DNA of 64,000 bases, from contig CAZGOI010000001.1 in assembly GCA_964527185.1 (NCBI GenBank), forward strand, positions 167,097 to 231,096. The letters run 5' to 3'. A program made the translations under genes and the position numbers. The notes beneath the pieces are model-generated. The model saw nothing but the letters and a program-made list of their open reading frames with translations. It was not told the DNA's origin and did not search any database. Source of the DNA: an uncultured Candidatus Saccharibacteria bacterium (lineage in GTDB: Bacteria > Patescibacteriota > Minisyncoccia > Phycocordibacterales > UBA9973). The first letter of the stretch is position 1. Each line of letters starts with the position of its first letter. Below are positions 13,820 through 60,861 of this stretch, in pieces.

Positions 13820-15853
13820 TTACTTAAACCAAAACATCACAAGAATTGGAACAATAAGAAGAGCAATGATGTTTAGAATTTTAATCATTGGGTTTATGGC
13901 TGGTCCAGCAGTGTCTTTGTATGGGTCACCAACAGTGTCGCCGGTAACAGAGGCCTTGTGTGCATCGCTACCCTTGCCACCGTGATTTCCTAGCTCTATG
14001 TATTTCTTGGCGTTGTCCCAAGCGCCACCACCTGAGGTCATCGAGACAGCTAGGAATATACCGGTAATAATAGAACCAACAAGTAGACCACCCAGGGCTT
14101 GTGGGCCAAGAACAAAACCAACAACAATCGGAGCAAGTACTGGAATAAGCGCTGGCACGACCATCTGTTTTATAGCACCGGTTGTTACGATGTCCACACA
14201 TTTTGCATAATCTGGTTTACCAGTGCCGTCCATGATTCCAGGAATTTCTCTAAATTGTCGCCGAACTTCACCAACAACTTTTCCAGCTGCTTTACCAACA
14301 GCCTCCATACAAAGAGCACTGAAGTAATATGGAAGTAAGCCACCAATCAAAAGACCAGCGATCACAAGTGGGTTGCCAAGATCAAAGTTTAATTTATGTC
14401 CCAAGTCGGCAAAATCTTGAGTGTATGAAGAAAATAAAACAAGAGCCGCGAGTCCAGCTGAACCAATAGCATAACCCTTCGTTACTGCTTTGGTTGTATT
14501 ACCAACTGCGTCGAGGGGGTCAGTTACATTTCTAACACTCTCTGGTAATTTGGCCATCTCTGCTATGCCACCAGCATTGTCTGTAATCGGGCCAAATGAA
14601 TCGATAGCAACTATTATACCAGTGAGTGACAGCATCGACATCGCAGCAATTGCTACACCATAGAGTTCACCGAAATGGTATGAAATTAAAATTCCCAAGA
14701 CAATTGCAATGAGTGGCAAACCAGTAGACTTCATCGAGATCGCAAGACCCTGGATGACATTTGTACCATGACCCGATTCCGAAGCCTTTGCGATTGACCT
14801 AACGGGAGAAAATTTTGTCGCGGTATAGTATTCAGTCGCAATAATTATCGTCGCAGTTACCAAGATACCAACAATTGCACACATATATAATGAGCCAACC
14901 GAGTAAATGTTTTGTCCCTCCATGAGCATTTTTGTAATAGGATAGAAACCAATTGCTGAAAGCACGCCAGCAGCAATTAGACCCTTGTAAAGCGCACCCA
15001 TAATATTATTATTTTTTCCAAGTCGCACAAACCATGTACCAATTATCGAACAAATAATTGCCATACCGCCAATCGCAAGTGGATAAATAACTGCGTTGCC
15101 AAAATTTACAAAGACAAGTGAGCCGAGCAACATTGTCGCTACAGAAGTAACAGCATAAGTTTCAAATAAGTCAGCCGCCATACCAGCACAGTCGCCAACA
15201 TTATCACCAACGTTATCGGCAATGACCGCAGGGTTTCTAGGATCATCTTCTGGAATTCCAGCTTCAACTTTACCAACTAAATCAGCCCCGACATCAGCTG
15301 CTTTTGTAAAAATTCCTCCACCGAGTCTAGCAAAAACAGAAATCAAACTTGCACCAAAAGATAAACCAACCAATGGTCGGACGGCACCAACTCCCGCGTA
15401 GTGGACAGCGATAGTATAGAAAACTGTCACACCGAGAAGCGCAAGACCAACAACCAAAAGACCAGTAACAGTTCCACCACGGAAAGCAAGCGAAAGAGCT
15501 TCTTTCAAACCCTTCTTGCCAGCTTCGGCCGTACGGACGTTTGCGCGAACAGAAACATTCATACCGATATAACCGGCAACAGCCGATAAGACTGCGCCAG
15601 TTATAAAACTTGAGGCCATCATCCAACCGAGCATTGGTATGAAACCAATTATCAAAAATAAAATAACAGCAATGATACCGATAGTTTTGTACTGACGATT
15701 TAAGTATGCTGAAGCACCTTGTTGAATAGCCTTGGCGATACTCTTCATCTTTTCGTCACCAGAATCTTGACTAAGAACAAGTTTGATAAGAAACAATCCA
15801 TATAAAATTGCGATAACCGAGGAAACGATAGCGAGAACAATAAATGAATTCAT
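13820..15853 (-). CDS. hppA: membrane-bound proton-translocating pyrophosphatase
   Basis: 677 aa with about 15 TM helices. Signature [18 protein letters not shown] and other H+-PPase blocks. Confidence 0.9.
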
Positions 15854-19602: not shown

Positions 19603-20706
19603 ATGAATAAAAAACTTACAAAAATAATAAAAAACCTATCGGTAATTTCCCTCTTAGTATTTTTTGGTTTTATTTTGAAAATAAAAAATGTTTCAGCTGA
19701 TAACTATTCCTATGTTTGCGCAGATGGCGGTACAATAACTTCCACCGTATCGATATCTCCAAGTGGTCCGTTTCCACTAAATCCAAATACTTTTACCGCC
19801 TATGGCATGCTCACAGACAATTCGTGCACTGTTAACAATGTTAATCTAACCGTCCAAAATAATAGTGGTACTATCTACACCATAATTCCAACCCAACCGA
19901 TAAGTCTAAATGGACAAATTCCATTAGGTGCCCCCGCTTATCAGCAGTTAACCCCCCCAGCTTCTGCTGGCAACTATGCCGTTCACTTTGTAACTGGCGT
20001 TAATGAGAATGGAGGTGGCACGTATGGAGGTGGTTTTGCTCGTTGTTTTGTGGCCGATACTAAAGTGACAATGGCTGATGGTTCAAAGAAAAATATTCAG
20101 GATGTTAAAATTGGCGACATGTTAATGAGTAAGGGCGGAAACAATAAAGTTCTAGGCTTCCACCAGCCAAAACTTGGAAATCAAAAGCTATACTCATTCA
20201 ATAGTGGGAGATATTTCGTGACAGCCGAACACCCATTCCTGACAACTGATGGATGGAAATCTTTAGATCCAGAAAAAACAGCAAATGAGCACCTCAACAT
20301 AAATATTACGGCGCTACACGTCGGCGACATGCTTATCACAGACCATGGAAATGTGAAACTAAATTCTATAAATGGAAAATATGAGAGTAGTGATACACAA
20401 CTATATAACTTTATTCTAGATGGCGATCATACATATTATGCAGATGGTTATTTGGTTCACAACAAGGTTGGTTGCACAGCAGATGGCTCGGGTGCGCCAA
20501 ACTACCCACTGTGTCCAAGTAATATTTACTGTCTAGACAGTACACCACCCCCAACGGGTGCCCTGGCTTACCCTCCAAATTCAAGTAACGTCGGGACATG
20601 TTCTATCCCGTGCTCAGTACCAGAATCAAATCCACAAGCATATTGTACTGCTAACCCAGGTAGAACGTTCTGTTCGACAGACCTTTATATGCACAACTGC
20701 CCCTAA
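19603..20706 (+). CDS. secreted protein with bacterial intein-like (Hint) domain and Cys-rich C-terminus
   Basis: Signal peptide. Hint block A CFVADTKV, block B TAEHPF, C-terminal block YNFILDGDHTYYADGYLVHN ending His-Asn. The next residue is Lys, not a nucleophile, so it resembles a BIL A-type rather than a true intein. Followed by a Cys-rich tail. Confidence 0.65.
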   Translation: MNKKLTKIIKNLSVISLLVFFGFILKIKNVSADNYSYVCADGGTITSTVSISPSGPFPLNPNTFTAYGMLTDNSCTVNNVNLTVQNNSGTIYTIIPTQPISLNGQIPLGAPAYQQLTPPASAGNYAVHFVTGVNENGGGTYGGGFARCFVADTKVTMADGSKKNIQDVKIGDMLMSKGGNNKVLGFHQPKLGNQKLYSFNSGRYFVTAEHPFLTTDGWKSLDPEKTANEHLNINITALHVGDMLITDHGNVKLNSINGKYESSDTQLYNFILDGDHTYYADGYLVHNKVGCTADGSGAPNYPLCPSNIYCLDSTPPPTGALAYPPNSSNVGTCSIPCSVPESNPQAYCTANPGRTFCSTDLYMHNCP

Positions 20707-20736: not shown

Positions 20737-22035
20737 ATGAAAAAAACAATCACGAAATATTTAATACTCTCAACTGCGACTTTGTTTGCTCTATTTGGTT
20801 TTTGGAATAAATCTTTGGCGTGGAATTATGTTCAATACGACGTAAGTTACGTTGTTAGTGCTACTCCTGTTCCAGTCGTCACGATCACTGCAAACCCGAC
20901 ATCTGGTACTGTCAATTCAGTCCATGGGATTCTGTCTTGGAGCGCGACCAACAATCCGACCTCATGCAGCGCTTCTGGCGATTGGTCTGGGGCGCAGGCG
21001 GTATCTGGCAACAATGTTGACCAAGGAGTCTTGACTCAAGTTCGCACATATACCTACACCCTAACTTGTTCAAATGCTAGTGGCACGAGTTCACCTGCTT
21101 CAGCCACTGTGGTTGTAAACTCTGCAACTAACAACCCCCCAACGTGTAATGCTGGTGCAAACCAAAGCATAACCCTACCTACTAATTCAGTCTCACTCTC
21201 TGGCTCTGGATCAGACCCAGATGGTGACCCAATAACCTATCAATGGTCTAAAACAGCCGGTCCAAGTTCATATAACATATCTTCACCGACATCAGCATCG
21301 ACTTCAGTAACTGGGTTAGTTCAAGGCACGTACACATTCCAATTTGTTACCACAGATAATCATGGAGCAAGTTGTTCACCAGTAAGCACAACTCAAGTAA
21401 CTGTAAATCCTGCCGCTAGTCCAAGTGGTTCTCTGACAGTTTCGCCAAACACTTGTACAATTTCCTCTGGGGCAAGTACTTGCAGTGTCACTGGCGCGAC
21501 GTGGACGACAAGTAACACAACATCGCCACAACTTCAGGACGGGAACACTGGTAATATACTCTCAACGCTTGCCAATAATGCGACACCACTGCAAGTTTGG
21601 GTTGCCTATCCTTCGACCACGTTTAATCTAAAAGACGGTGGCACACTACTTGATTCGAAAGTAGCAACGGCTTCGTGTACTGGCGGCACGTCTTGGAATG
21701 GAACTATTTGCGCAACAGTTGTTGTTAACGGAGTTTGTGCAGCTACCCACTGGAATTGTACCGCTGGAACAAGTATAAATAATGCAACTGGTGCAAACTC
21801 GTGGACATGGCAATGCAAAGGCTCTGGTGGTGGTTCAACTGCATCGTGTTCAGAAAATTTCCCAGTAGGCAGCCCTCAATGTAGCGATGGTATAGACAAT
21901 AATGGCGATGGGTTAATAGATTCAAACCAGCCATCTTGTCATACAGATTGCAATGCCAATAATGCTTCCTCTTACAATCCTAATCTAAACAACGAAGCCA
22001 AGAGGTGCATAAACCCGATATATAAGGAACTTTAA
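20737..22035 (+). CDS. secreted PKD-domain repeat protein
   Basis: Signal peptide. Ser/Thr-rich Ig-like repeats. PKD signature SGSGSDPDGDPITYQWSKTAGP. Cys-rich C-terminus. Confidence 0.6.
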   Translation: MKKTITKYLILSTATLFALFGFWNKSLAWNYVQYDVSYVVSATPVPVVTITANPTSGTVNSVHGILSWSATNNPTSCSASGDWSGAQAVSGNNVDQGVLTQVRTYTYTLTCSNASGTSSPASATVVVNSATNNPPTCNAGANQSITLPTNSVSLSGSGSDPDGDPITYQWSKTAGPSSYNISSPTSASTSVTGLVQGTYTFQFVTTDNHGASCSPVSTTQVTVNPAASPSGSLTVSPNTCTISSGASTCSVTGATWTTSNTTSPQLQDGNTGNILSTLANNATPLQVWVAYPSTTFNLKDGGTLLDSKVATASCTGGTSWNGTICATVVVNGVCAATHWNCTAGTSINNATGANSWTWQCKGSGGGSTASCSENFPVGSPQCSDGIDNNGDGLIDSNQPSCHTDCNANNASSYNPNLNNEAKRCINPIYKEL

Positions 22036-34138: not shown

Positions 34139-34732
34139 ATGAAGAAACCATATACATTTGTATTTTTTGGAGTTGTTGGCTCTGGCAAAGGAACCCAGAT
34201 AGAACTCTTGGAAAAATATATCAAAGACAAAGATATGGGCGCCAAAGTATTGACTATCTACCCAGGGGCCCTCTTTCGAGACCTAATCGGTGGTGGAACA
34301 TATACCGGCAAATTGGTTAAGGAAACATTAGATCAAGGTTGGCTACAGCCAAATTTTATAGCCATGGGTCTTTTTACTGAAAAACTCATATCATCGCTTG
34401 ATGAGCACACCAATCTAATCGTCGATGGCTTCCCGAGGACGGTCACCCAGTCAGAAGTTCTTGAAGCCGCTATGGATTTTTATAAAAGAGGCGACATTAA
34501 AATTATTTATATAAAAGTTGAAAAAGATGAAGCAGTCCACCGCATGAAGATGCGTGGCCGCAGCGATGACACCGACGAAGGCATAGAAAAACGCATGGAC
34601 GAATACATAAACAACGTTGTCCCAGCCATGATGTATTTTAAAGACAAAAGCAACTACACTATATATACGATCAACGGTGAGCAATCTATCGAAGACGTCC
34701 ACAGGGATCTAATCAAAGCGCTCGATCTCTAA
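34139..34732 (+). CDS. adk: adenylate kinase
   Basis: P-loop GVVGSGKGTQ. LID and NMP-binding segments. Confidence 0.85.
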   Translation: MKKPYTFVFFGVVGSGKGTQIELLEKYIKDKDMGAKVLTIYPGALFRDLIGGGTYTGKLVKETLDQGWLQPNFIAMGLFTEKLISSLDEHTNLIVDGFPRTVTQSEVLEAAMDFYKRGDIKIIYIKVEKDEAVHRMKMRGRSDDTDEGIEKRMDEYINNVVPAMMYFKDKSNYTIYTINGEQSIEDVHRDLIKALDL

Positions 34733-34733
34733 T

Positions 34734-35420
34734 ATGCAAAGGGACAAAAACATTGTCATATCTCTCGGCGGTTCGCTCATCGTGCCGGGCGATATCGATA
34801 CTGTTTTTGTCAAAGATTTTGTCGAACTCGTATCTGTCTATGCGAAAGAAAATTTTCATTTTGTGATTATTACCGGCGGTGGGAAAATCTGCCGCAAATA
34901 CAACGAAGCGCTTGAAAAAATAATCACCCCGAGCCACGAAGACCTCGACTGGCTCGGCATCGCCATCACGCGAGCCAATGCCGAATTTGTGCGCATTGCT
35001 TTTGGCGACCTAGCCGATGAGAAAATTTCTCTCGACCCAGACCACTTAGAGAAAAAAGAAAAACCGATCAAGGTCGGCGGCGGCTGGCAACCCGGAAACT
35101 CGAGCGATTTGGCCGCTGTTCGATCGGCAAAAAGCGTTGGAGCAAAAAAAGTAATAAACCTTTCAAACATCGACTACGCCTATGATAAAGACCCGAAAGT
35201 TTTTCCTGATGCCAAAAAGATAGAGCAAACTTCTTGGGCCGATTTCCGAGCCATACTGCCGACAGAGTGGGACCCGGGCCTAAATGCACCCTTTGACCCT
35301 ATCGCTGCCCGCGAAGCAAGCGAGCTCGACCTCGAAGTAGCTATCATGAATGGCAAAAATATCGACAATCTAAAAAACTATCTCGATGGTAAACCTTTCA
35401 TCGGAACTGTTATAACATAA
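34734..35420 (+). CDS. pyrH: UMP kinase, archaeal type (amino-acid kinase fold)
   Basis: 228 aa. Blocks ISLGGSLIVP, ITGGGKICRKY, GIAITRANA, GGWQPGNSSD, LSNIDYAYDKDPKVFPDAKKI and DPIAAREA are collinear with archaeal UMP kinases rather than bacterial PyrH. Confidence 0.7.
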   Translation: MQRDKNIVISLGGSLIVPGDIDTVFVKDFVELVSVYAKENFHFVIITGGGKICRKYNEALEKIITPSHEDLDWLGIAITRANAEFVRIAFGDLADEKISLDPDHLEKKEKPIKVGGGWQPGNSSDLAAVRSAKSVGAKKVINLSNIDYAYDKDPKVFPDAKKIEQTSWADFRAILPTEWDPGLNAPFDPIAAREASELDLEVAIMNGKNIDNLKNYLDGKPFIGTVIT

Positions 35421-35465: not shown

Positions 35466-36233
35466 ATGGCGGTAATCATTAAAACTAAAGAGGAGATTGA
35501 AATACTGAGGGAAGGGGGGCATCGGCTCGCTTCTGTTTTGAAGAAAGTTGCCGCAAAAGTTGCTCCTGGTATTTCCACTTACGAGCTCGACCAATATGCA
35601 CATAAACTCATTAAAGAATTGGGCGACGAGCCAGCATTTTTGGGCTACAAACCAGAAGGGCAGAAATTCCCATACCCGGCGACGCTCTGCACTTCGGTCA
35701 ACGACGAAGTAGTGCACGGTATTCCAAACAAAAATAAAATTTTAAAAGAGGGCGACATCGTGTCGCTCGACCTTGGCCTCAAACACAAAGGCATGTTTAC
35801 CGACCACGCTGTGACGGTGGCCGTTGGGAAAATAAATAGCAATTCGCAAAAACTTCTGATCGATACCAAAGAAGCGCTCGAAGTCGGCATCGCAAATGCC
35901 CGCGCCGGCAAAACCGTCGGCGACATCGGTTACGCCATAGAGAAATTTGTCAATAAAAAATACGGCATAGTTCGCGACCTGGCTGGCCATGGAGTAGGCA
36001 AAAAAATTCACGAAGACCCATTTGTGCCAAACTTTGGCAAACCGGGCAAGGGCGAGAGGCTAGTTCCCGGCATGGTCATCGCTATCGAACCGATGCTTAA
36101 TTTGGGCGGTGCAAACGTCGTCACAATGCCGGACGGCTACACAATAAAAACCGCCGATGGTTCCCGCAGCGCGCATTTCGAGCATACAATTTTAATTACA
36201 GAAGATAATGCAGAAATTTTGACTACTATATAA
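35466..36233 (+). CDS. map: methionine aminopeptidase type I
   Basis: 255 aa. MetAP metal-ligand blocks (D..D..H..E..E pattern: DLGLKHKG, HGVGKKIHE, AIEPM, HFEHT). Confidence 0.9.
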   Translation: MAVIIKTKEEIEILREGGHRLASVLKKVAAKVAPGISTYELDQYAHKLIKELGDEPAFLGYKPEGQKFPYPATLCTSVNDEVVHGIPNKNKILKEGDIVSLDLGLKHKGMFTDHAVTVAVGKINSNSQKLLIDTKEALEVGIANARAGKTVGDIGYAIEKFVNKKYGIVRDLAGHGVGKKIHEDPFVPNFGKPGKGERLVPGMVIAIEPMLNLGGANVVTMPDGYTIKTADGSRSAHFEHTILITEDNAEILTTI

Positions 36234-36261
36234 AAATCACGATATCGCTACCGTGATTTTT
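36232..36261 (+). terminator. intrinsic terminator ending the S10-spc-secY-adk-map operon
   Basis: AAAAATCACG-loop-CGTGATTTTTG. Confidence 0.6.
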
Positions 36262-36589
36262 GCATAAATTTTTTTTGGGCCTCAGTTTTTAATTATGAGC
36301 AGATCTTCCTTTGTATTTTTTCAAAAGCTTTTTGAGAGTTTCTGAAACATATTTTAATTCAGGGGTAGAAAGCTCTAATTCTTCCCCTGAATATTGGCCA
36401 CTCTCTAATTTTTTCCTCTGGGTTACTAAGAGAATGAGTTTTCCTGTTTGTATGCAGATTATACGACTAAGAGTTTTTTCACTTGGCATAAACTATGTTT
36501 TTAAGTATTTTAAATTAATTTATACATTTGTCAAGTAAGCTTTAAATTTCAATATATTTTTCTATTTCTACATGTTACAATAGTCTACA

Positions 36590-39322
36590 ATGGAAGGTTT
36601 GAATTTAGATAATGCTCCGAAGTTTAAAACTCCGCAGGAAGAGTTAGAATTTTTACGCGCGCATATCAAGGAGCGCGAGAAATTGTTGCAAGAATCTGGG
36701 CAAGAAGTTTACCACGAAAATCTGGCAGACGACGTTCTTTCTGAATATCGCAAGTTTGAGCCAGAAGAGGTCATGCACAAGAGCGCCACCATCAAAGAAA
36801 AAGACGCGCAAGACCTGGTCTTGCGTCTCCACCCAGAACCCCACGATAAGAAGATGGAAGAAATGCTCGGCATACTTCTCGACAAAGGTATTTCAAACGC
36901 CCTGTCGATCATCGGCAAGATGAACAACCCGCACCTAGACGACGACTTTCACCGATTCCTCGTCCAATACCTCTACAGCACCCACAAAATCCCCGGCCTA
37001 AAAGAAGGCAGCCCGCTTTTCAAGTCGCTCGACATGAAACTTTTTGAAATAACACTGCCAGACCCGACAGAAGACGAAAAAGAAAAGAAAAATTTAAAAG
37101 AATTACTCTCGGCTATGGATCAATTCTATGCCGGCATGCACTCGGTTGGCCTTGGCCGTGAAAATGCCAACCGCAATCACTTCACACTCGAGATCGCCCT
37201 GGCCGAAGGCAGCGACAGCTTTGTTTTCTATACCGCCGTCCCGACCCACAAAGCTGAACTTTTTGAAAAACAATTAATCGGCGTTCACCCAAACGCAAAA
37301 GTCAACGAAATTTCCGACGACTACAATATTTTCACCGAGGGTGGTTCGGTCGCGGCCTCGTATGCCACCCTTGCCAACCCCGAAGTCTACCCGATCAAGC
37401 TCTATGATTCCTTCGACCACGACCCGCTCAATATCATCCTCAACGTTTTTACTAAATTAAAAAAGACCGGCGAAGGCGCAGCCATCCAATTCACCATCTG
37501 CCCAGAAGACGACGATATCATAAAAAAATTCCACATAATTTTGGGCGATGTCAAAGAGGGAATGTCGGTCAAAACGGCTTCGAGCATGACTCGCCAATTC
37601 GGCAAAGAAGTCGGTGCCCTCCTAACCCATGCATTTACGGGGCAAAATAAAAAAGAAGAAAAAAAAGTAGATGAAAAAGTAGTCGAAGACATCGGTGAGA
37701 AAATAAAAAGCACGATCATGGCCGCCAATATCCGCATCGTCACCTCGGCCGAGACCAGCCTGCGCGCCAAGCAGATACTCTCTGACATCGAATCTTCATT
37801 CAACCAATTCACCGAATCGCACAGGAACGGCTTTAATTGGAATCACCCCGACGGTCGCAGTTTGCACGACCTGGTGCACGATTTTTCATACAGAAATTTT
37901 AGCGACAAATATTCTATGCCGCTCAATCTAAAAGAACTCTCGACGGTTTTTCATTTCCCATACGGCATTTCTTCTTCACCACAATTAAAACAAGCCCGAG
38001 CTGGCATCGCCCCAGCGCCGATTGAAATAGGAACCGAGGGCGTCGCCCTTGGAACCAATAGCTATCGAGGCAAAGATACAATAATCCATTTTGCCGAGGA
38101 AGATCGCATGCGGCATCTATATGTCATCGGCCAGACAGGTACCGGCAAAACAACGATTATGAAAAATATGATCGCCCAAGATATCGCCGCCGGCCACGGT
38201 GTCTGCTATATCGACCCGCACGGGACAGACATTCAAGATATTTTAAGCTACATTCCAAAAGAGCGCATCGACGATGTCATATATTTCGACCCGGCCTATA
38301 CTGCTCGGCCGATGGGCCTCAACATGCTCGAGTATGACCCAAAATATCCCGAGCAGAAAACTTTTGTCGTCAATGAGCTGATGAATATTTTCAATAAGCT
38401 TTTTGATATGAAGACGGCTGGTGGCCCGATGTTTGAACAGTATTTCAAAAATTCTGCCTTCCTAGTCATGGAGCACCCAGAGAGCGGCGCCACACTGCTT
38501 GAGATCGGGCGTGTGCTCTCCGACAAGGAATTCCGCGATATGAAACTCTCGCATTGCAAAAACCCGATCATCACCCAATTTTGGAAAAGCGCCGAGCAAA
38601 CAACCGGCGACCAGTCGATCGCCAATTTTGTACCGTACATCACATCAAAATTCGACAACTTCATTTCAAACGACATCATGCGCCCGGTAGTCCTTCAAGA
38701 AAAGTCGGTTTTCAACTTCCGCGATATCATGGACAATAAAAAAATCCTCCTGGTCAATCTTTCAAAAGGCCGACTCGGTGATATCAACGCCGACCTAATC
38801 GGGCTCGTAATCGTAAATAAAATTCAGATGGCGGCGCTGTCGCGCGTCGATATGTATGGCAAGGCGATGGAAGACTTTTTCCTGTACATCGATGAATTTC
38901 AAAATGTCACAACCGATTCGATCGAATCTATTCTGTCAGAAGCCCGCAAATACCGCCTGTCGCTTACCGTCGCCCACCAATACATCGCCCAGCTCGAAGA
39001 AAATATCAAAAACGCTGTCTTTGGCAACGTCGGCTCGATGGCCGTTTTTCGCGTTGGAGCCGAAGACGCCGAAGCCCTCGAGAGCAAATTCAAGCCGACA
39101 TTTACCACAGCCGACATCATGAAAATTGAAAATTACAATGCCTACATTTCGATGCTAGTGAATGGCCAGCCGACAAAACCTTTCAACATCGCAACATTTC
39201 CACCGCCACAGGGCAACATGGAGATCGTCGAGAGCATAAAAGAACTCTCATACCTTAAATATGGCCGCGACCGCAATGAAGTCGAAGAAGAAATTATGAA
39301 TAAATATCGACAGGGTGCATAG
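36590..39322 (+). CDS. FtsK/TraD/VirD4-superfamily P-loop ATPase with large N-terminal domain of unknown function (soluble)
   Basis: 910 aa. The C-terminal half has Walker A HLYVIGQTGTGKTT, Walker B FFLYIDEFQNV and coupling-protein-like Q motif LSLTVAHQYIAQL. No TM helices. The first ~500 aa have no recognisable motifs. Confidence 0.6.
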   Translation: MEGLNLDNAPKFKTPQEELEFLRAHIKEREKLLQESGQEVYHENLADDVLSEYRKFEPEEVMHKSATIKEKDAQDLVLRLHPEPHDKKMEEMLGILLDKGISNALSIIGKMNNPHLDDDFHRFLVQYLYSTHKIPGLKEGSPLFKSLDMKLFEITLPDPTEDEKEKKNLKELLSAMDQFYAGMHSVGLGRENANRNHFTLEIALAEGSDSFVFYTAVPTHKAELFEKQLIGVHPNAKVNEISDDYNIFTEGGSVAASYATLANPEVYPIKLYDSFDHDPLNIILNVFTKLKKTGEGAAIQFTICPEDDDIIKKFHIILGDVKEGMSVKTASSMTRQFGKEVGALLTHAFTGQNKKEEKKVDEKVVEDIGEKIKSTIMAANIRIVTSAETSLRAKQILSDIESSFNQFTESHRNGFNWNHPDGRSLHDLVHDFSYRNFSDKYSMPLNLKELSTVFHFPYGISSSPQLKQARAGIAPAPIEIGTEGVALGTNSYRGKDTIIHFAEEDRMRHLYVIGQTGTGKTTIMKNMIAQDIAAGHGVCYIDPHGTDIQDILSYIPKERIDDVIYFDPAYTARPMGLNMLEYDPKYPEQKTFVVNELMNIFNKLFDMKTAGGPMFEQYFKNSAFLVMEHPESGATLLEIGRVLSDKEFRDMKLSHCKNPIITQFWKSAEQTTGDQSIANFVPYITSKFDNFISNDIMRPVVLQEKSVFNFRDIMDNKKILLVNLSKGRLGDINADLIGLVIVNKIQMAALSRVDMYGKAMEDFFLYIDEFQNVTTDSIESILSEARKYRLSLTVAHQYIAQLEENIKNAVFGNVGSMAVFRVGAEDAEALESKFKPTFTTADIMKIENYNAYISMLVNGQPTKPFNIATFPPPQGNMEIVESIKELSYLKYGRDRNEVEEEIMNKYRQGA

Positions 39323-39324
39323 TT

Positions 39325-39894
39325 ATGGAAGAAATAGAAGTAAAATTTTTAGAGATAGATATAGATATTTTAAAAAATAAACTCAAAAGTCTTGGGGCAA
39401 CTTTCATGGGAAGTTTCGATTATAAAAGAAAAGCATATGACTTTGCTGATAGATCTCTTGCAGAAAAAAATGCTTGGGTAAGGTTGCGTGATGAAGGCGA
39501 TAGAGTAGTTCTTACATATAAGCAACGTTTTGGTATTGAAAAAGATATTCTTCAGGGTGGAGGCATGAAAGAAGTTGAAACAATTGTCAGTGATTTTGTT
39601 ATTACTGATGAGTTCCTATCCTCTATCGGTATGATTCAAAAGTTTTATGAGGAAAATAAACGTGAAAGGTATATTCTTGATAACGTAGAAATAGATATTG
39701 ATACATGGCCGATGATTCCTCCGTATGTTGAACTTGAGGGTAGCACATGGAATGCAGTAGAAGCAGTATCTAAAAAACTTGGGTTTGATTGGAGTAAACA
39801 TTTTAAATGTTCGACGATGCAAATATATGAAAAATACGGGATTAATGAAAACGACTACTCAGTTATTACTTTTACGGAACAGATTAAAAAGTAA
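39325..39894 (+). CDS. CYTH-domain protein 1 (CyaB/thiamine-triphosphatase-like triphosphate tunnel metalloenzyme)
   Basis: 189 aa. N-terminal EIEVKF (ExExK), then WVRLR, DIDTWP and PPYVELEG blocks. The start is 3 nt after the ATPase stop. Confidence 0.65.
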   Translation: MEEIEVKFLEIDIDILKNKLKSLGATFMGSFDYKRKAYDFADRSLAEKNAWVRLRDEGDRVVLTYKQRFGIEKDILQGGGMKEVETIVSDFVITDEFLSSIGMIQKFYEENKRERYILDNVEIDIDTWPMIPPYVELEGSTWNAVEAVSKKLGFDWSKHFKCSTMQIYEKYGINENDYSVITFTEQIKK

Positions 39895-39961
39895 TTGCAA
39901 AATATCAGTTTTTTTGCTATATTACAAGTATTAATACAACCGCGAAAGCGATTTTTTATTT

Positions 39962-40546
39962 ATGAAACACCCAAAAGAAGAACTTACATATGTTATGCTT
40001 AAACCAGATGGCGTCCGCAAAGGACTCACTGGTGAGGTTATTAGGCGCTTTGAACAGCGTGATCTCAAGATCGTTGCCCTCGAAATGTTTATGCCCCAAT
40101 TCGACAAGGTCAACGACCACTACCCAAAGAGCGAAGATTGGATCACTCGCCTTGGCAACAAAACACTCACCACATATGAAAAATATGGCTATGACGCGAT
40201 GAAAGATTTTGGTACAACCGATCCATCAAAAATTGGCCCTGAAATACGCAAATGGCTTATCGACTATATGACCTCAGCCCCCCTTGTAAAAATGGTGATA
40301 AAAGGTGTACACGCAGTTGACGTCGTAAGAAAAATTGCCGGCGATACCATGCCATACAAAGCCGATATAGGTACAATCCGTGGCGATTTTTCTATCGATA
40401 GTCCTGCCCTTGCCAACATGGAAAAGCGCGCAGTGATGAACATCGTCCACTGTTCAGAGACTCCAGAAGAAGCAGAACATGAGATTAAACATTGGTTTGG
40501 TGATTTAAAGATTTTAGATTACAAACGCTTTGGAGTAGATGAGTAA
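39962..40546 (+). CDS. ndk: nucleoside diphosphate kinase (with insertions)
   Basis: YVMLKPDGVRKGL, RFEQRDLKIVALE, active-site His in NIVHCSE. 194 aa, against a usual ~140. Confidence 0.8.
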   Translation: MKHPKEELTYVMLKPDGVRKGLTGEVIRRFEQRDLKIVALEMFMPQFDKVNDHYPKSEDWITRLGNKTLTTYEKYGYDAMKDFGTTDPSKIGPEIRKWLIDYMTSAPLVKMVIKGVHAVDVVRKIAGDTMPYKADIGTIRGDFSIDSPALANMEKRAVMNIVHCSETPEEAEHEIKHWFGDLKILDYKRFGVDE

Positions 40547-40551
40547 AACAT

Positions 40552-40573
40552 AAAATCCCCGAAAGGGGATTTT
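40552..40573 (+). terminator. intrinsic terminator after ndk
   Basis: AAAATCCCC-GAAA-GGGGATTTT. Confidence 0.6.
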
Positions 40574-40589
40574 ATGCTAATATAGCCAT

Positions 40590-41129
40590 ATGCATGAAAT
40601 AGAAACTAAAATACTAGAAGTTAATACTAGTGATATAGCCAAGAAATTAAGCGCGCTTGGATCGGAAAAAATACAAGATGTCTTACTTAGCGTCGATTGG
40701 TTTAGTTTAAGTGGAGTTACCAAGGAAAACAACCCTTGGTTTCTTAGAGTCCGTTCATACAATACTGGTAAAGTTGAAGTCACTTGGAAAGCAAAATCAG
40801 AAATATTGGGTGTGGCTCGCAAGCATAAAGAAATAAATCTGATTGTCGATAGTCACGAAGAAGCCAAAAATCTTTTTGAAGAAATTGGTCTTGTGCTATA
40901 TGCTCATCAGGAAAAGAAAAGAACGTCATGGAAACTTAATAGTATCCAGTTTGATTTAGATACTTACCCAAACATGCCTCCTTATCTTGAGATTGAAGCT
41001 GGGAGTGAAAAAGAAATAACTGAAATGATAAAACAACTCGAACTTGAGGAAAATGATACATGGAATGATGGAGAACGAACTTTAATTGAAGAAAAATATA
41101 AACTTAACTGGAGTGATATGAAATTTTAG
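40590..41129 (+). CDS. CYTH-domain protein 2 (paralog of 39325..39894)
   Basis: 179 aa. HEIETKI (ExExK), WFLRVR, DLDTYP and PPYLEIEAG are collinear with CYTH protein 1. TGCTAATAT sits 7 nt before the ATG, suggesting a leaderless transcript. Confidence 0.65.
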   Translation: MHEIETKILEVNTSDIAKKLSALGSEKIQDVLLSVDWFSLSGVTKENNPWFLRVRSYNTGKVEVTWKAKSEILGVARKHKEINLIVDSHEEAKNLFEEIGLVLYAHQEKKRTSWKLNSIQFDLDTYPNMPPYLEIEAGSEKEITEMIKQLELEENDTWNDGERTLIEEKYKLNWSDMKF

Positions 41130-41135
41130 AGTTTT

Positions 41136-41780
41136 ATGCGGAAAATTACTGATATATACGAAGAATACAAAATCATGCCGAATTTGCAGTTGCATCAGCT
41201 GCGAGTCACTGCTGTAGCCAAGCAAATTTGCGAATCATTGGATATAGAACTAGACAAGAAATTAATAATAACAGCGGCTCTTGTTCACGATATGGGTAAC
41301 ATTATAAAATCTGACCTTGGTTACTTTTCAGAATTTATAGAATCGGGGCAACTGGGATACTGGGAGGAGGTTAAAGAGCAATATATAAAAAAATACGGAA
41401 AAGATGAGCATGAAGCCACAGTAAAAATTCTTAAAGAACTTGGTTTACCTGAAAGTATAGTAGAGCTTGCAAGCGAGAATCGTTTTTCTTTACTTTGTGC
41501 CCATGCTTTGGGCAAAGATCTCAATCTTAAAATAATTCATTATTCAGATATGCGAGTGGGCCCCTACGGCGTCCTTTCGTATGAAGAGCGAATGAATGAG
41601 GCAAAGAAGCGTTATAAGAATCGCTCAGGGGGCATAGAGGGAAATGAGCGTCAGAAGCTCGTTGATTGTGGTAAAGAAATAGAAAAACAGATTTTTGCTC
41701 ACTCAAACATCAAACCAGAAGATATAAATGATGAATCTGTGGCGAATGATATTGAGGAATTGAAAAATTTTGAAATCTAA
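41136..41780 (+). CDS. HD-domain phosphohydrolase
   Basis: 214 aa. H..HD..D metal-binding pattern (LHQLR, ALVHDMGN, IHYSDMR). Lies 7 nt after the CYTH2 stop. Confidence 0.65.
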   Translation: MRKITDIYEEYKIMPNLQLHQLRVTAVAKQICESLDIELDKKLIITAALVHDMGNIIKSDLGYFSEFIESGQLGYWEEVKEQYIKKYGKDEHEATVKILKELGLPESIVELASENRFSLLCAHALGKDLNLKIIHYSDMRVGPYGVLSYEERMNEAKKRYKNRSGGIEGNERQKLVDCGKEIEKQIFAHSNIKPEDINDESVANDIEELKNFEI

Positions 41781-41833: not shown

Positions 41834-41861
41834 TTGCGCGGGTATAGGCTAGGAGTATACT
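41834..41861 (+). promoter_or_regulatory. promoter (TTGCGC-16-TATACT) of candidate sRNA
   Basis: Seen directly in the sequence, at the head of a 310-bp ORF-free spacer. Confidence 0.45.
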
Positions 41862-41867
41862 GAAAGT

Positions 41868-42055
41868 AGGGTTATTTGAAATGTATTACCTAGATCATAA
41901 TTTATAGGGGGCAAAGTGTTTTGATACGAGCGCTGTAACATTATTAATGTAGACAAACCTCTATCATCCATAGTCCCACTTAGCATAACGCTATGGTAAT
42001 ATCATTCAAATAGTCCTAATAAGAGATTCTTCCTAGATTTGGAAGGATTTTTTAT
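41868..42055 (+). ncRNA. candidate structured sRNA (~188 nt, 6S-like long imperfect hairpin)
   Basis: Bounded by the promoter and terminator (TTCTTCC-TAGATTT-GGAAGGA + T-run at 42027-42057). The 5' segment GGGTTATTTGAAATGTATTACC pairs with the 3' segment GGTAATATCATTCAAATAGTCC with an internal bulge. Confidence 0.35.
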
Positions 42056-42088
42056 TTTTAACTGAAATTAGAGTATAATCTACCCATA

Positions 42089-43459
42089 ATGGCTTCTGCT
42101 ACAGAATTAAAAATCACTTTTTGCTCCGGCGCTGGAACGGTCACCGGGGCTAATTTTCTACTCGAAGGCAATGGTAAAAGGTTTTTGATCGATTGCGGCC
42201 TCGTCCAGGGCGAGAAAGTTGGCGAAGAGCTCAACCTCAAACCATTTCCATACGACCCCGCCTCGATCGACGCGCTTTTTATCACCCACGGCCACATCGA
42301 CCACATCGGTCGCATACCGAAGCTCGTCGAATTTGGTTTCAAGGGTCGAATAATATCGACAATCCCGACCAAAGATATCGCAAGGGTTATGCTCATTGAT
42401 ATGGATGAAATTCTTTCACACGACAAGGCCGACAAGCTAGATGAAATTTACACAAAAGAAAACGAAGAGAAAGCGATGAGGATGTGGGAGACGATAGACT
42501 ACCACCAACCCCTTGGTTTTGATGGCGGTTTTAGTTTTTTATACAAAGACGCTGGGCACATACTCGGCTCGGGCATGCTCGAAGTCTCTTACAACAATAA
42601 AAAAATTGTTTTTACCGGCGACTTGGGCAACTCGCCATCGCCGATACTTTGCGACACCGAAGTTATTAACGACGCTGATTATCTGATAATGGAATCTGTT
42701 TATGGCGATCGCAATCACGAAGGTCGCGATGAACGCAAGAAAAAACTCGCCCAAGTTATCAACGACAACTACAAACGCAAGGGCACGCTCGTCGTTCCGA
42801 CTTTTTCACTCGAACGCACCCAGGATTTGCTGTTTGAAATAGACTCGCTGTTGAATTCTAATTCAATTCCAAAAATGAAAATATTCCTCGACTCGCCGCT
42901 CGCAATTAAACTCACCGATGTCTATTTGAAGTACGAAAAATATTTTAACGATATAGCTCGCAAAGTTGTTTCAACCGGCGACAAGATTTTTAACTTCCCA
43001 GAACTGGTCGAGACCCCAGAAACTGACGAGTCAAAAGCCATCCTTCGGGCCACTAGCCCAAAAATAATAATTGCCGGCAGTGGCATGTCAAACGGTGGGC
43101 GCATTATTCACCACGAGAAAAATTACTTGCCCGATGGCAATAACACCATACTCCTAACAGGCTTCCAATCTGTCGGGACGCTAGGCCGATTGATACAAGA
43201 AGGCACCCGAAATCTTCGCATCCAAGGTGAAAATATAAAACTGCGCGCCCATGTCGAGATGATCCGCGGCTACTCTGGTCATAAAGATTCAAACCACCTG
43301 GTCGAATTTGTCGAAGACACGGCCAAAACAGTCAAAAAAGTTTTTGTCGTCATGGGTGAACCCCAATCTTCGATGTTTCTAGCCCAGAAGCTTCGCGACA
43401 ATTTAAATATCGATGCCTACGTCCCAGAAGCCGGCGAGCAAGTCGTGATAGAATGTTAA
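42089..43459 (+). CDS. RNase J / beta-CASP family metallo-beta-lactamase ribonuclease
   Basis: 456 aa. MBL motif HGHIDHIG plus beta-CASP downstream blocks. It has its own TATAAT 11 nt before the ATG. Confidence 0.7.
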   Translation: MASATELKITFCSGAGTVTGANFLLEGNGKRFLIDCGLVQGEKVGEELNLKPFPYDPASIDALFITHGHIDHIGRIPKLVEFGFKGRIISTIPTKDIARVMLIDMDEILSHDKADKLDEIYTKENEEKAMRMWETIDYHQPLGFDGGFSFLYKDAGHILGSGMLEVSYNNKKIVFTGDLGNSPSPILCDTEVINDADYLIMESVYGDRNHEGRDERKKKLAQVINDNYKRKGTLVVPTFSLERTQDLLFEIDSLLNSNSIPKMKIFLDSPLAIKLTDVYLKYEKYFNDIARKVVSTGDKIFNFPELVETPETDESKAILRATSPKIIIAGSGMSNGGRIIHHEKNYLPDGNNTILLTGFQSVGTLGRLIQEGTRNLRIQGENIKLRAHVEMIRGYSGHKDSNHLVEFVEDTAKTVKKVFVVMGEPQSSMFLAQKLRDNLNIDAYVPEAGEQVVIEC

Positions 43460-43465
43460 AGTATT

Positions 43466-44104
43466 ATGAAAACAGAAAAAAATAAAACCGAGTATCTCTG
43501 CTACAATGGTCCAATCGGCAACGGCGACAGGCACAACCATTTAAAATTAAAAATTGCCGTCTGCGGAGCAGCTGAAACAACAACCTGTGGGGCAAATGCC
43601 TTCAACCAAGCCAAAGCCCTTGGTCGGGAGATAGTCTGCCAAGGAGGGATTTTAGTTACCGGCGCAACAGCCGGGTTTCCGATGTGGGCAGCAATTGGGG
43701 CCAAAGATGAAAAGGGAATCAGCATTGGTATTTCACCGGCTGCCAACGAACACGAACACATAGACACATATCGTTTGCCGCTTGATTATATGGATCTCAT
43801 CATCTACACCGGTTTTGGTTTTCCTGGCCGGGATTTGTTGCTCACACGTTCCTGCGATGCTATCATCCTCGGTTGTGGGCGAATAGGCACTATACACGAA
43901 TTCACGATTGCATTTGAAGACGACAAGCCGATCGGGGTGCTCGAGGGCGATTGGGATACTTCAAAGACCATACGCGAGATCATCGAACGCGGCAATCGGC
44001 AAAATGACAAAATAATTTTCGACAAAGACCCAAAAGTTCTAGTCGAAAAAATTCTGATGATGGCCTCTAAAAATAAAACGCCAAAAGAAAACTCTCTAGA
44101 TTAG
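43466..44104 (+). CDS. LOG/SLOG-like Rossmann-fold nucleotide-binding protein (TIGR00725-like)
   Basis: 212 aa. VTGATAGFPMWAAIGA and ILGCGRIGTIHEF blocks resemble the LOG/DprA-like SLOG family. Confidence 0.45.
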   Translation: MKTEKNKTEYLCYNGPIGNGDRHNHLKLKIAVCGAAETTTCGANAFNQAKALGREIVCQGGILVTGATAGFPMWAAIGAKDEKGISIGISPAANEHEHIDTYRLPLDYMDLIIYTGFGFPGRDLLLTRSCDAIILGCGRIGTIHEFTIAFEDDKPIGVLEGDWDTSKTIREIIERGNRQNDKIIFDKDPKVLVEKILMMASKNKTPKENSLD

Positions 44105-51245: not shown

Positions 51246-51319
51246 CCACCCTTAGCTCAGTTGGTTAGAGCACAGAGCTTATACCTCTGGGGTCCTTGGT
51301 TCGAATCCAAGAGGGTGGA
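51246..51319 (+). tRNA. tRNA-Ile (anticodon UAU)
   Basis: CCACCCT..AGGGTGG-A acceptor, D-arm GCTC/GAGC, anticodon stem CAGAG/CTCTG with loop CTTATAC, T-loop TTCGAAT. No encoded CCA. Confidence 0.7.
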
Positions 51320-51321
51320 CA

Positions 51322-60422: not shown

Positions 60423-60514
60423 TGGCGGAACCGGAGGGATTCGAACCCTCGAGGGGGTATAAAGCCCCTACCTCTTTAGCAAAGAGGTACGTTAGACCAC
60501 TCTGACACGGTTCC
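60423..60514 (-). tRNA. tRNA-Ser (anticodon GCU)
   Basis: Reverse complement GGAACCG..CGGTTCC-G-CCA. Loop TTGCTAA. Long variable arm TAGGGGCTTTATACCCCCT. T-loop TTCGAAT. Confidence 0.85.
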
Positions 60515-60688: not shown

Positions 60689-60776
60689 TGGAGGCGTGGA
60701 TGAGTGGTTTAAATCAACGGTTTACTAAACCGTCGACCCTTAATCGGGTCCGTGAGTTCGAATCTCACCGCCTCCG
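60689..60776 (+). tRNA. class II tRNA (Ser-like) with anomalous anticodon ACU; possible pseudo or unusual tRNA
   Basis: GGAGGCG..CGCCTCC-G acceptor, 3-bp D stem with long loop, anticodon stem ACGGT/ACCGT with loop TTACTAA, 17-nt variable arm, T-loop TTCGAAT. Confidence 0.55.
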
Positions 60777-60861
60777 CAACGATCTTTTCAAACAACCCCC
60801 TGCTATTTTTGTATAAAAAGAATTTGTAGTACACTTAACTTAAGTATAAATAATAAATGAT

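Follow-up and report, generated by a model that had tools for sequence, protein, structure and literature searches.

A 64,000-nt stretch of a Patescibacteria chromosome (GenBank assembly GCA_964527185.1, contig CAZGOI010000001.1, positions 167,097 to 231,096; the whole of it is called the window below) carries, downstream of the map gene, a set of genes that is most probably made of two layers rather than of one machine, a reading to which we give a probability of about 0.6. The first layer is fixed and would comprise map, a 910-aa ATPase of the DUF8128 family that acts as an orphan core motor, ndk, and a structured RNA followed by the gene of a β-CASP ribonuclease (with, in addition, a SLOG protein). 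The second is variable and corresponds to a slot that flanks ndk on both sides, where a sub-clade would have gained small housekeeping phosphohydrolases, namely the CYTH-domain proteins CYTH1 and CYTH2 (joined by CYTH3 in relatives) and an HD-domain protein. An original prediction, made from the window alone, had viewed the ATPase, CYTH1, ndk, CYTH2 and HD genes as an accessory five-gene nucleotide module inserted after map. These five open reading frames (ORFs) are all present where it had placed them, on the + strand and with the domains it had named, as seen in Pfam and NCBIfam searches.

The evidence for a fixed layer comes first from synteny. The string secY-adk-(pyrH)-map-ATPase-ndk-RNA-β-CASP-(SLOG), followed by the oppositely oriented rplT, rpmI and infC, was found in about 25 GTDB species (one genome per species) and in 19 metagenome loci; overall, about 30 species of Paceibacteria share it. 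The species that share it include named Nomura-, Taylor-, Parcu- and Paceibacteria, with ATPase identities down to about 44%. Its left anchor is map, which lies directly 5' of the ATPase gene in more than 25 loci, and its right anchor is formed by the β-CASP and SLOG genes. Across a series of relatives (whose loci are designated L002, L003, and so on), the identity of the ATPase to that of the window follows the identities of SecY, L20 and IF3: it is 83% in L002, 78% in L003, 77% in L005 and 65% in L008, versus 82, 79, 78 and 70% for SecY, respectively, and 52% versus 65% at a fifth point. Full-length relatives at 77-86% identity make up more than 120 database clusters, from Patescibacteria only, and an exhaustive search at E < 1e-30 recovered 5,325 cluster representatives of the family. 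As its divergence tracks that of SecY, L20 and IF3, the ATPase has been inherited vertically, under purifying selection of the strength seen for housekeeping genes.

These data do not support an inserted accessory module, since the ATPase and ndk are backbone genes in about 30 species and the conservation of the former equals that of SecY. In addition, the GC content of the segment (0.38-0.44) is the same as that of the remaining window, and its composition therefore shows no mark of foreign DNA; native GC, strict synteny and SecY-like divergence are the grounds on which a recent horizontal insertion is rejected. The original prediction had relied on the lack of infA, rpmJ, rpsM, rpsK, rpsD, rpoA and rplQ after map, and tblastn searches with the E. 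coli proteins did confirm that none of these genes lies in the 64-kb window. However, because the ATPase and ndk belong to a lineage-wide backbone, the missing alpha operon is here a trait of the lineage that requires no local insertion, and the map-ATPase-ndk region is what typically follows the ribosomal-protein genes of the spc operon in Paceibacteria.

The ATPase itself (36590-39322, + strand) is a P-loop motor of the VirB4/VirD4 (FtsK-HerA) superfamily. Residues 1 to ~140 form a helical extension limited to the closest clade, ahead of a conserved core that covers residues ~145-906; within the latter, an alpha/beta domain resembling the N-terminal domain of VirB4 (residues ~140-460) precedes a motor resembling type IV coupling proteins (T4CPs) such as VirD4 and TrwB (residues ~485-910). 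The Walker A (GQTGTGKT, 38129-38152), Walker B (LYIDEF, 38882-38899) and sensor residues are invariant. That the C-terminal half is of the FtsK/TraD/VirD4 type had been predicted, and is supported by matches above the gathering thresholds to the Pfam models T4SS-DNA_transf (PF02534; 30.2 bits, gathering 20.1), TrwB_AAD_bind (PF10412; 27.1, gathering 20.5) and TraG-D_C (PF12696; 25.3, gathering 22). In NCBIfam, the protein reaches no curated full-length TraD, VirD4, CD1115 or VirB4 threshold, scoring for instance 46.8 for TIGR03743 (cut-off 366), 34.7 for NF045973 (250) and 32.2 for TIGR03754 (647). The proposed absence of a transmembrane (TM) segment also holds, the highest Kyte-Doolittle mean over 19 residues being 1.41 and the N-terminus being predicted to form soluble helices. 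The N-terminal half had been described as devoid of recognisable motifs, whereas precomputed annotation assigns it to Pfam PF26449 (DUF8128). A full-text literature search found no paper on DUF8128.

Predicted structures add a VirB4-like side to this picture. For the AlphaFold model of the full-length ATPase, the best match by fold is TrwK, the VirB4 protein of plasmid R388 (E 1e-10, ~890 aligned columns); HerA ranks next, ahead of TrwB, and HerA-nuclease complexes are among the matches. For a model of the N-terminal domain (residues 130-480, pTM 0.76) the top 14 Foldseek matches are TrwK chains only; structure prediction was also run on trimmed database homologs. At the sequence level, a profile of the ATPase family searched against solved proteins returned TrwB (1e-6) and DotL (7e-5) only. 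Given the VirB4-like fold modelled for the N-terminal domain and the coupling-protein-like sequence of the motor, the ATPase is thus a soluble hybrid, in which a VirB4-type N-terminal domain is joined to a T4CP-type motor.

The resemblance to T4CPs (VirD4/TraD/TrwB/DotL) concerns the C-terminal ~420 residues, which contain Walker A and B, separated by a helical insertion, as well as a TraG-D_C region. In contrast to T4CPs, the ATPase has no N-terminal TM anchor, in place of which it carries a soluble N-terminal region of ~480 residues with the VirB4-like domain; it is a chromosomal core gene with a fixed place beside the ribosomal operon, and no relaxase or type IV secretion system (T4SS) linkage was found among the annotated neighbours in the window, L002 and L003, nor detected near distant homologs. 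With VirB4/TrwK, it shares, by predicted fold, the arrangement of a VirB4-type N-terminal domain ahead of an ATPase domain. However, it scores only 22 bits with TIGR00929 (cut-off 643), over the P-loop only, VirB4 is absent from the matches of its profile to PDB proteins, and no VirB3, VirB6 or VirB8 gene is present in the window or in the syntenic loci.

Annotations in databases ('type IV secretory system conjugative DNA transfer family protein', for example), together with the T4CP Pfam matches, could suggest that the gene is a coupling protein left behind by a conjugative or integrative element. The original prediction had named relaxase or VirB genes as signs of an ordinary coupling protein within an integrative and conjugative element (ICE); no relaxase, VirB4 or other VirB protein, integrase or repeats were found among the annotated neighbours across the 64 kb, or for L002 and L003. 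The ATPase moreover lacks the TM anchor, its N-terminal domain is VirB4-like and not T4CP-like, and it occupies the same place beside map in dozens of species with SecY-like divergence. Synteny and conservation refute an ICE remnant for the locus of the window, and such an origin is extremely improbable.

A study of Patescibacteria (PMC12102498) counts 5,713 VirD4-like homologs in 2,918 genomes, only 148 of which are near virB4, locates the virB4 of Paceibacteria near dnaA/dnaN and raises the possibility of an exaptation. We infer, rather than read from its tables, that the window ATPase is very likely one of these homologs. The portion of the study available to us does not describe a VirB4-like N-terminal domain, the fold, the map-ATPase-ndk synteny or SecY-like conservation for them. 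A T4CP homolog of Ca. Southlakia epibionticum ML1 is reported to be non-essential. Outside the syntenic group, the neighbours of about 50 more distant homologs of the ATPase are unrelated to those of the window, and ndk, CYTH, HD and β-CASP genes are all missing there, with L083 as a single exception. Their large neighbours (800-1200 aa) mostly have no Pfam match, are homologous only pairwise and are absent from the window, the remaining ones being a lipase-like protein, ClpB and AddA. In the exception, from Uhrbacteria (L083, 9797-14541), the gene of an ATPase homolog with 43% identity has as its immediate downstream neighbour that of RNase J, which is also a β-CASP ribonuclease. The other candidate for an ATPase-β-CASP link outside the clade, L043, involves a partial match and a distance of 9 kb, and the two cases together are too thin to establish one.

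The second layer was recognised from what varies around ndk. In the close relatives L003 and L007-L011, the ATPase, ndk and β-CASP genes are present while CYTH and HD are absent; a locus may contain anything from 0 to 3 CYTH copies, and the presence of HD does not depend on that of CYTH2. The five genes hence do not behave as one unit, as the original prediction would have it, their components varying independently. Elsewhere, the slot is filled by NUDIX, HAD and adk-like genes, an SRPBCC protein, DUF559, a HepT toxin or IS200-type transposases, and therefore tolerates insertions. Between the ATPase and ndk, inserts of this kind (IS200-type Y1 transposases, a HepT toxin and a DUF559 endonuclease-like protein) were noted at L005 13291-13926 (- strand), L089 7319-7981, L025 13188-13673 and L010 12833-13213. 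The ATPase-ndk slot is thus an insertion hotspot, enriched in nucleotide phosphohydrolases, and CYTH and HD are variable cargo of one sub-clade.

Within this slot, ndk itself keeps its position. The window copy (39962-40546, + strand) is of a long, 194-aa form, which matches Pfam NDK in two stretches (2e-33; PF00334, 115.5 bits) and whose NIVHCSE sequence corresponds to the canonical N-x-x-H-G-S-D region of the catalytic histidine; it falls under the NCBIfam equivalog cut-offs, probably through an internal insertion of ~45 residues. In about 25 species the ATPase is followed either by this form, 80-90% identical among its holders, or by a form of ~157 aa that is only ~30% identical to it. Holders of the shorter form are L003 (12826-13299), L007, L009 and L010, and in L005 and L093 a 358-aa adk-like kinase stands in place of ndk.

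CYTH1 (39325-39894, + strand; Pfam CYTH, 2.5e-12) and CYTH2 (40590-41129, + strand; 2.5e-7), which both score above the Pfam gathering threshold, are paralogs, 26% identical (E 5e-16), that belong to the triphosphate-tunnel metalloenzymes. CYTH1 finds its closest solved relative in SaTTM (7ns8, 3e-5), and the best solved matches of CYTH2 are the archaeal TTM-like 2dc4 (4.5e-7) and 1yem. Three paralog families can be distinguished in the syntenic loci: C1, 50-72% identical to the window copy, C2, 46-51% identical to its own, and C3, ~20% identical to either. E3, E5, K7, R53, R55, K66, E83, R113, D126, E136 and E138 are each kept by 36 or all of the 37 syntenic CYTH proteins, among them the two of the window, which thereby resemble the SaTTM/CthTTM/NeuTTM triphosphatases and the 25-kDa thiamine triphosphatase in having ExExK and the full tunnel set of Arg, Lys, Glu and Asp. 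What distinguishes them from these enzymes is the unusual presence of three CYTH families in one locus, and scores below the cut-off of the NCBIfam cyaB model (TIGR00318; 34.7 and 42.9, cut-off 57.95). An HF motif four residues before ExExK is diagnostic of class IV adenylate cyclases (CyaB), and a WxRxR motif is a marker of thiamine triphosphatases (ThTPases; PMC8233210). The HF motif is absent from all three CYTH families, whose M-x-E-[IV]-E-x-K start leaves no room for it. W-[VLI]-R-[LVI]-R, in turn, is found in 22 of 22 CYTH1 orthologs; in CYTH2 the tryptophan is shifted by one position, and CYTH3 has none. Although this may point to a ThTPase-type CYTH1, a single motif is a lead only. CYTH1, CYTH2 and CYTH3 would be triphosphatases, acting on inorganic triphosphate or an organic triphosphate, and probably not cyclases. 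The literature search found nothing relevant on CYTH proteins in Patescibacteria.

The position of the CYTH genes is itself informative. When metagenomes were scanned with CYTH1 as seed, nearly every locus (L105 is an exception) had its ortholog, at 50% identity or more, directly after the ATPase and before ndk or the gene that replaces it. Homologs below 50% identity are in unrelated contexts. The original prediction had considered that the genes might be neighbours by chance; as CYTH1 orthologs keep their place between the ATPase and ndk in nearly every locus, the adjacency is inherited within the sub-clade. CYTH2 orthologs (46-51% identical) occupy the same position as in the window, and in 6 loci, the window's own contig included, an HD gene comes next. 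Among the more distant homologs of CYTH1, two (L117 6455-6940; L130 9089-9643) lie a few genes from Cob_adeno_trans, a PduO-type adenosyltransferase, and from a DUF8128-family ATPase homolog. PduO-type enzymes release inorganic triphosphate, as would suit CYTH proteins acting as triphosphatases. Speculatively, pyrophosphate made by the latter could find a sink in a membrane H+-pyrophosphatase whose gene (13820-15853, - strand) lies 20 kb upstream.

The HD protein (41136-41780, + strand; Pfam HD, 1e-9) has H20, H51, D52 and D138 invariant in 31 homologs, and with this H...HD...D metal site it weakly resembles the YfbR/HDDC2/OxsA nucleotidases, from which it differs by a family-specific C-terminal part of ~90 residues. 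Its family profile gives weak matches (E ~1e-3) to 1xx7, HDDC2 (4dmb) and OxsA, and PF13023 (HD_3) is matched by some of its homologs while the window protein matches only the generic HD and HDIG models. It may thus be a YfbR/HDDC2-like 5'-nucleotidase.

That CYTH, HD, HerA-like ATPases and SLOG domains are all known from defence systems could also evoke a conflict system, in which CYTH, as a cyclase or a triphosphatase, would produce or remove a signal, with the HD protein serving to degrade that signal and the ATPase as effector or sensor. The ATPase has weak PADLOC matches to mad8 (5.6e-14) and to HerA, and the slot is variable, with a HepT toxin and IS200 elements in other species. However, a scan of seven proteins of the region against PADLOC-DB v2, as the original prediction had advised when raising a defence or signalling role, returned no system: neither CYTH protein, ndk nor SLOG matched any model, the matches of the ATPase were to the generic P-loop core only, and the only others were weak and partial, namely HD with dGTPase (E 9e-4 over 35 residues) and the β-CASP protein with LmuA and RTasMBL. 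Unlike defence genes, the ATPase shows SecY-grade conservation and strict synteny, while the cyclase HF motif is absent, GC is native and the components occur independently of each other. A conflict system or defence island is therefore largely refuted and effectively excluded by these results, and we consider it highly unlikely.

Between the HD and β-CASP genes, the window holds a structured RNA of ~195 nt (41864-42060, + strand), directly 5' of the β-CASP gene. The 308-nt spacer in which it lies is 75-82% identical over 270-312 nt in the eight closest relatives, where the neighbouring HD protein is only ~50% identical, and 73% identical in L007. A conserved promoter-like sequence, TTGCGC-16 nt-TATACT, is found at 41834-41861. 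The core has several helices, namely P1 (AGGGUUAUUU/AAAUAGUCCU), P2 (UAUUACC/GGUAAUA), a GGG/CCC helix and a UAGC hairpin, with a variable insert, and the RNA ends with a terminal hairpin and a U-run. The covariance model, R1, recovers the RNA in 33 loci, of which 14 did not contribute to the seed. In all 33 it is on the + strand, 5' of the β-CASP gene or of a small ORF with several TM segments; a downstream ORF is present in 32 of them, at a distance of at most 95 nt in 26 and of up to 265 nt in the others. In an alignment that was fitted to the model, 96.6% of the paired cells can pair, versus 83% after shuffling and ~47% with slid partners, the observed values being reached by 0 of 500 shuffles, and compensatory double changes occur at 30 of 37 pairs. 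No Rfam family matched the RNA, or anything else in the region, at gathering or permissive thresholds. It is a candidate for a leader, attenuator or riboswitch-like element that acts in cis on the ribonuclease operon, or else for a stand-alone small RNA (sRNA). In 12 loci (L008 13733-14116, L011, L017, L021, L025, L030 and others), a conserved ORF of ~125-148 aa with several TM segments lies between the RNA and the β-CASP gene; it has no homolog in the window and shows only a faint match to DUF2238.

Downstream of the RNA lie the genes of the β-CASP ribonuclease, which is aCPSF1/Cas14-like (42089-43459, + strand; Pfam Beta-Casp, 1e-31, and RMMBL), and of the SLOG/LOG-like protein (43466-44104, + strand; LDcluster4, 8e-32), both with NCBIfam matches below the cut-offs. 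Upstream, the tail of the spc operon contains adk (34139-34732, + strand; Pfam ADK) and an archaeal-type UMP kinase gene, pyrH (34734-35420, + strand; Pfam AA_kinase; TIGR02076 pyrH_arch, 157.9 bits for a cut-off of 158.05), and ends with map (35466-36233, + strand; Peptidase_M24). Many relatives also have this archaeal-type pyrH between adk and map, although some lack it. Both adk and pyrH are nucleoside monophosphate (NMP) kinases and belong to a nucleotide theme, which the original prediction had proposed and which is plausible: it runs from these two genes through ndk, CYTH and HD to β-CASP and SLOG downstream, with NUDIX, HAD and adk-like genes in relatives.

Such a theme can be pushed further, by regarding everything from adk to SLOG as one pathway for the salvage of scavenged nucleic acids. 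The ATPase would then be a DNA or RNA translocase, HerA-NurA-like or an FtsK/VirD4 pump, that feeds the β-CASP nuclease; the NMPs and dNMPs released would regain phosphates through adk, pyrH and ndk, with HD, CYTH and the LOG-like enzymes in charge of trimming. This would agree with the conservation of the order adk-pyrH-map-ATPase-ndk-RNA-β-CASP-SLOG in about 30 species, with a position of ndk that is held despite a change of type and taken by an adk-like kinase in L005 and L093, with a motor of the FtsK/HerA/VirB4 superfamily that has HerA-nuclease complexes among its fold matches, with the RNase J gene directly next to the distant homolog of L083, and with a general lack of nucleotide synthesis in Patescibacteria, as stated in the introduction of PMC12102498. 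However, gene order beside ribosomal operons is often kept without a functional link, as is the case for adk and map, and the ~50 distant homologs of the ATPase have unrelated neighbours, with L083 as the sole exception. The β-CASP protein, besides, is closest to RNA-processing enzymes of the aCPSF1 type, and hairpins and the RNA gene part the units. We regard a single salvage pathway as rather unlikely. Even more tentative is a version in which the ATPase would be an essential, T4SS-independent and Patescibacteria-specific translocase of nucleic acids or proteins, forming a scavenging line with β-CASP and the NMP and nucleoside diphosphate (NDP) kinases, while the RNA would be a riboswitch-like leader that tunes the nuclease to a nucleotide-derived ligand; we think this doubtful.

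The hairpins in question lie after map (36231-36262, + strand; AT-rich) and after ndk (40549-40576, + strand), where the original prediction had placed terminators, and both fold stably compared with shuffled sequences: the former at -9.9 kcal/mol (z -4.0, with 0 of 200 shuffles folding as well), which makes it a likely terminator, and the latter at -18.4 kcal/mol (z -6.4), in the position of a terminator between ndk and CYTH2-HD. A simple consensus terminator scan picked up neither of the two (36231, 40549). Judged by folding, they would divide the region into at least three transcription units. Within these, the tight spacing that had been noted stands, with slightly different values: the gap is 2 nt, not 3, between the ATPase and CYTH1, and 6 nt, not 7, between CYTH2 and HD. 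The 328-nt spacer between map and the ATPase contains a 66-aa ORF on the - strand (36289-36489), called as a gene in the public assembly and without Pfam match; in relatives, other small ORFs are found in this spacer.

In the two-layer reading that we favour, the ATPase would assemble as a ring, and its VirB4-like N-terminal domain would dock on a partner, be it the membrane or a protein, that is encoded at another locus; the most plausible candidate is the T4SS-like apparatus of Patescibacteria, with its virB4 near dnaA. Once docked, it would energise the transfer of a macromolecular substrate, and would do so independently of the hydrolases encoded around it. The CYTH and HD proteins, together with adk, pyrH, ndk, the β-CASP ribonuclease and the LOG-like SLOG protein, would for their part interconvert and clean a scavenged nucleotide pool, in an organism devoid of de novo nucleotide synthesis.

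Several points weigh against this reading. The status of the ATPase as a core gene is based on synteny and substitution rate, rather than on genome-wide presence/absence counts. No partner for its N-terminal domain was found, and the neighbours of the distant homologs gave no T4SS component. The models of the ATPase are of moderate confidence (pLDDT 71-73), with a pTM of 0.42 for the full-length protein (pLDDT 71) and of 0.76 for the N-terminal domain. CYTH1 begins 2 nt after the stop codon of the ATPase and is kept there in nearly every locus, which makes co-transcription of, or a functional tie between, the two genes possible. Lastly, the adjacency of ATPase, ndk and β-CASP survives the change of ndk type and, with the L083 homolog lying directly before RNase J, hints at a link between motor and nuclease.

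Taken as a whole, the window covers housekeeping genes of a chromosome from Patescibacteria (Paceibacteria/"Parcubacteria"), which encode NusA, the H+-pyrophosphatase, trigger factor, ClpP, RNase Y, the S10-spc ribosomal proteins, transfer-messenger RNA (tmRNA), SmpB, FtsH, RuvA and Fpg. Upstream of the ribosomal operon, a 367-aa protein with Hint, Hom_end_hint and Vint matches (19603-20706, + strand) and an adjacent PKD-domain protein (20737-22035, + strand) sit among otherwise family-less ORFs. ARAGORN further identified a tRNA-Ile with a TAT anticodon (51246-51320) and a divergent pair of tRNA-Ser genes (60423-60514, - strand, and 60690-60777, + strand), one of which has the unusual anticodon ACT.

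Patescibacteria represent a large share of bacterial diversity, and their core biology has mostly been deduced from the functions that they miss. A 910-aa ATPase that evolves as slowly as SecY, is held in a fixed place and would combine a VirB4-type docking domain with a coupling-protein motor suggests, in this context, an indispensable and uncharacterised machine rather than the "conjugation protein" of database annotations. With a defined architecture and a delimited group of orthologs, the role of the thousands of orphan T4CP homologs, a question raised in PMC12102498, becomes concretely testable. Next to it, the structured RNA may represent a new cis-acting regulator, or an sRNA, for a ribonuclease operon, and the three CYTH families, with their HD, NUDIX and HAD companions, may illustrate how these symbionts handle a scavenged pool of nucleotides and triphosphates.

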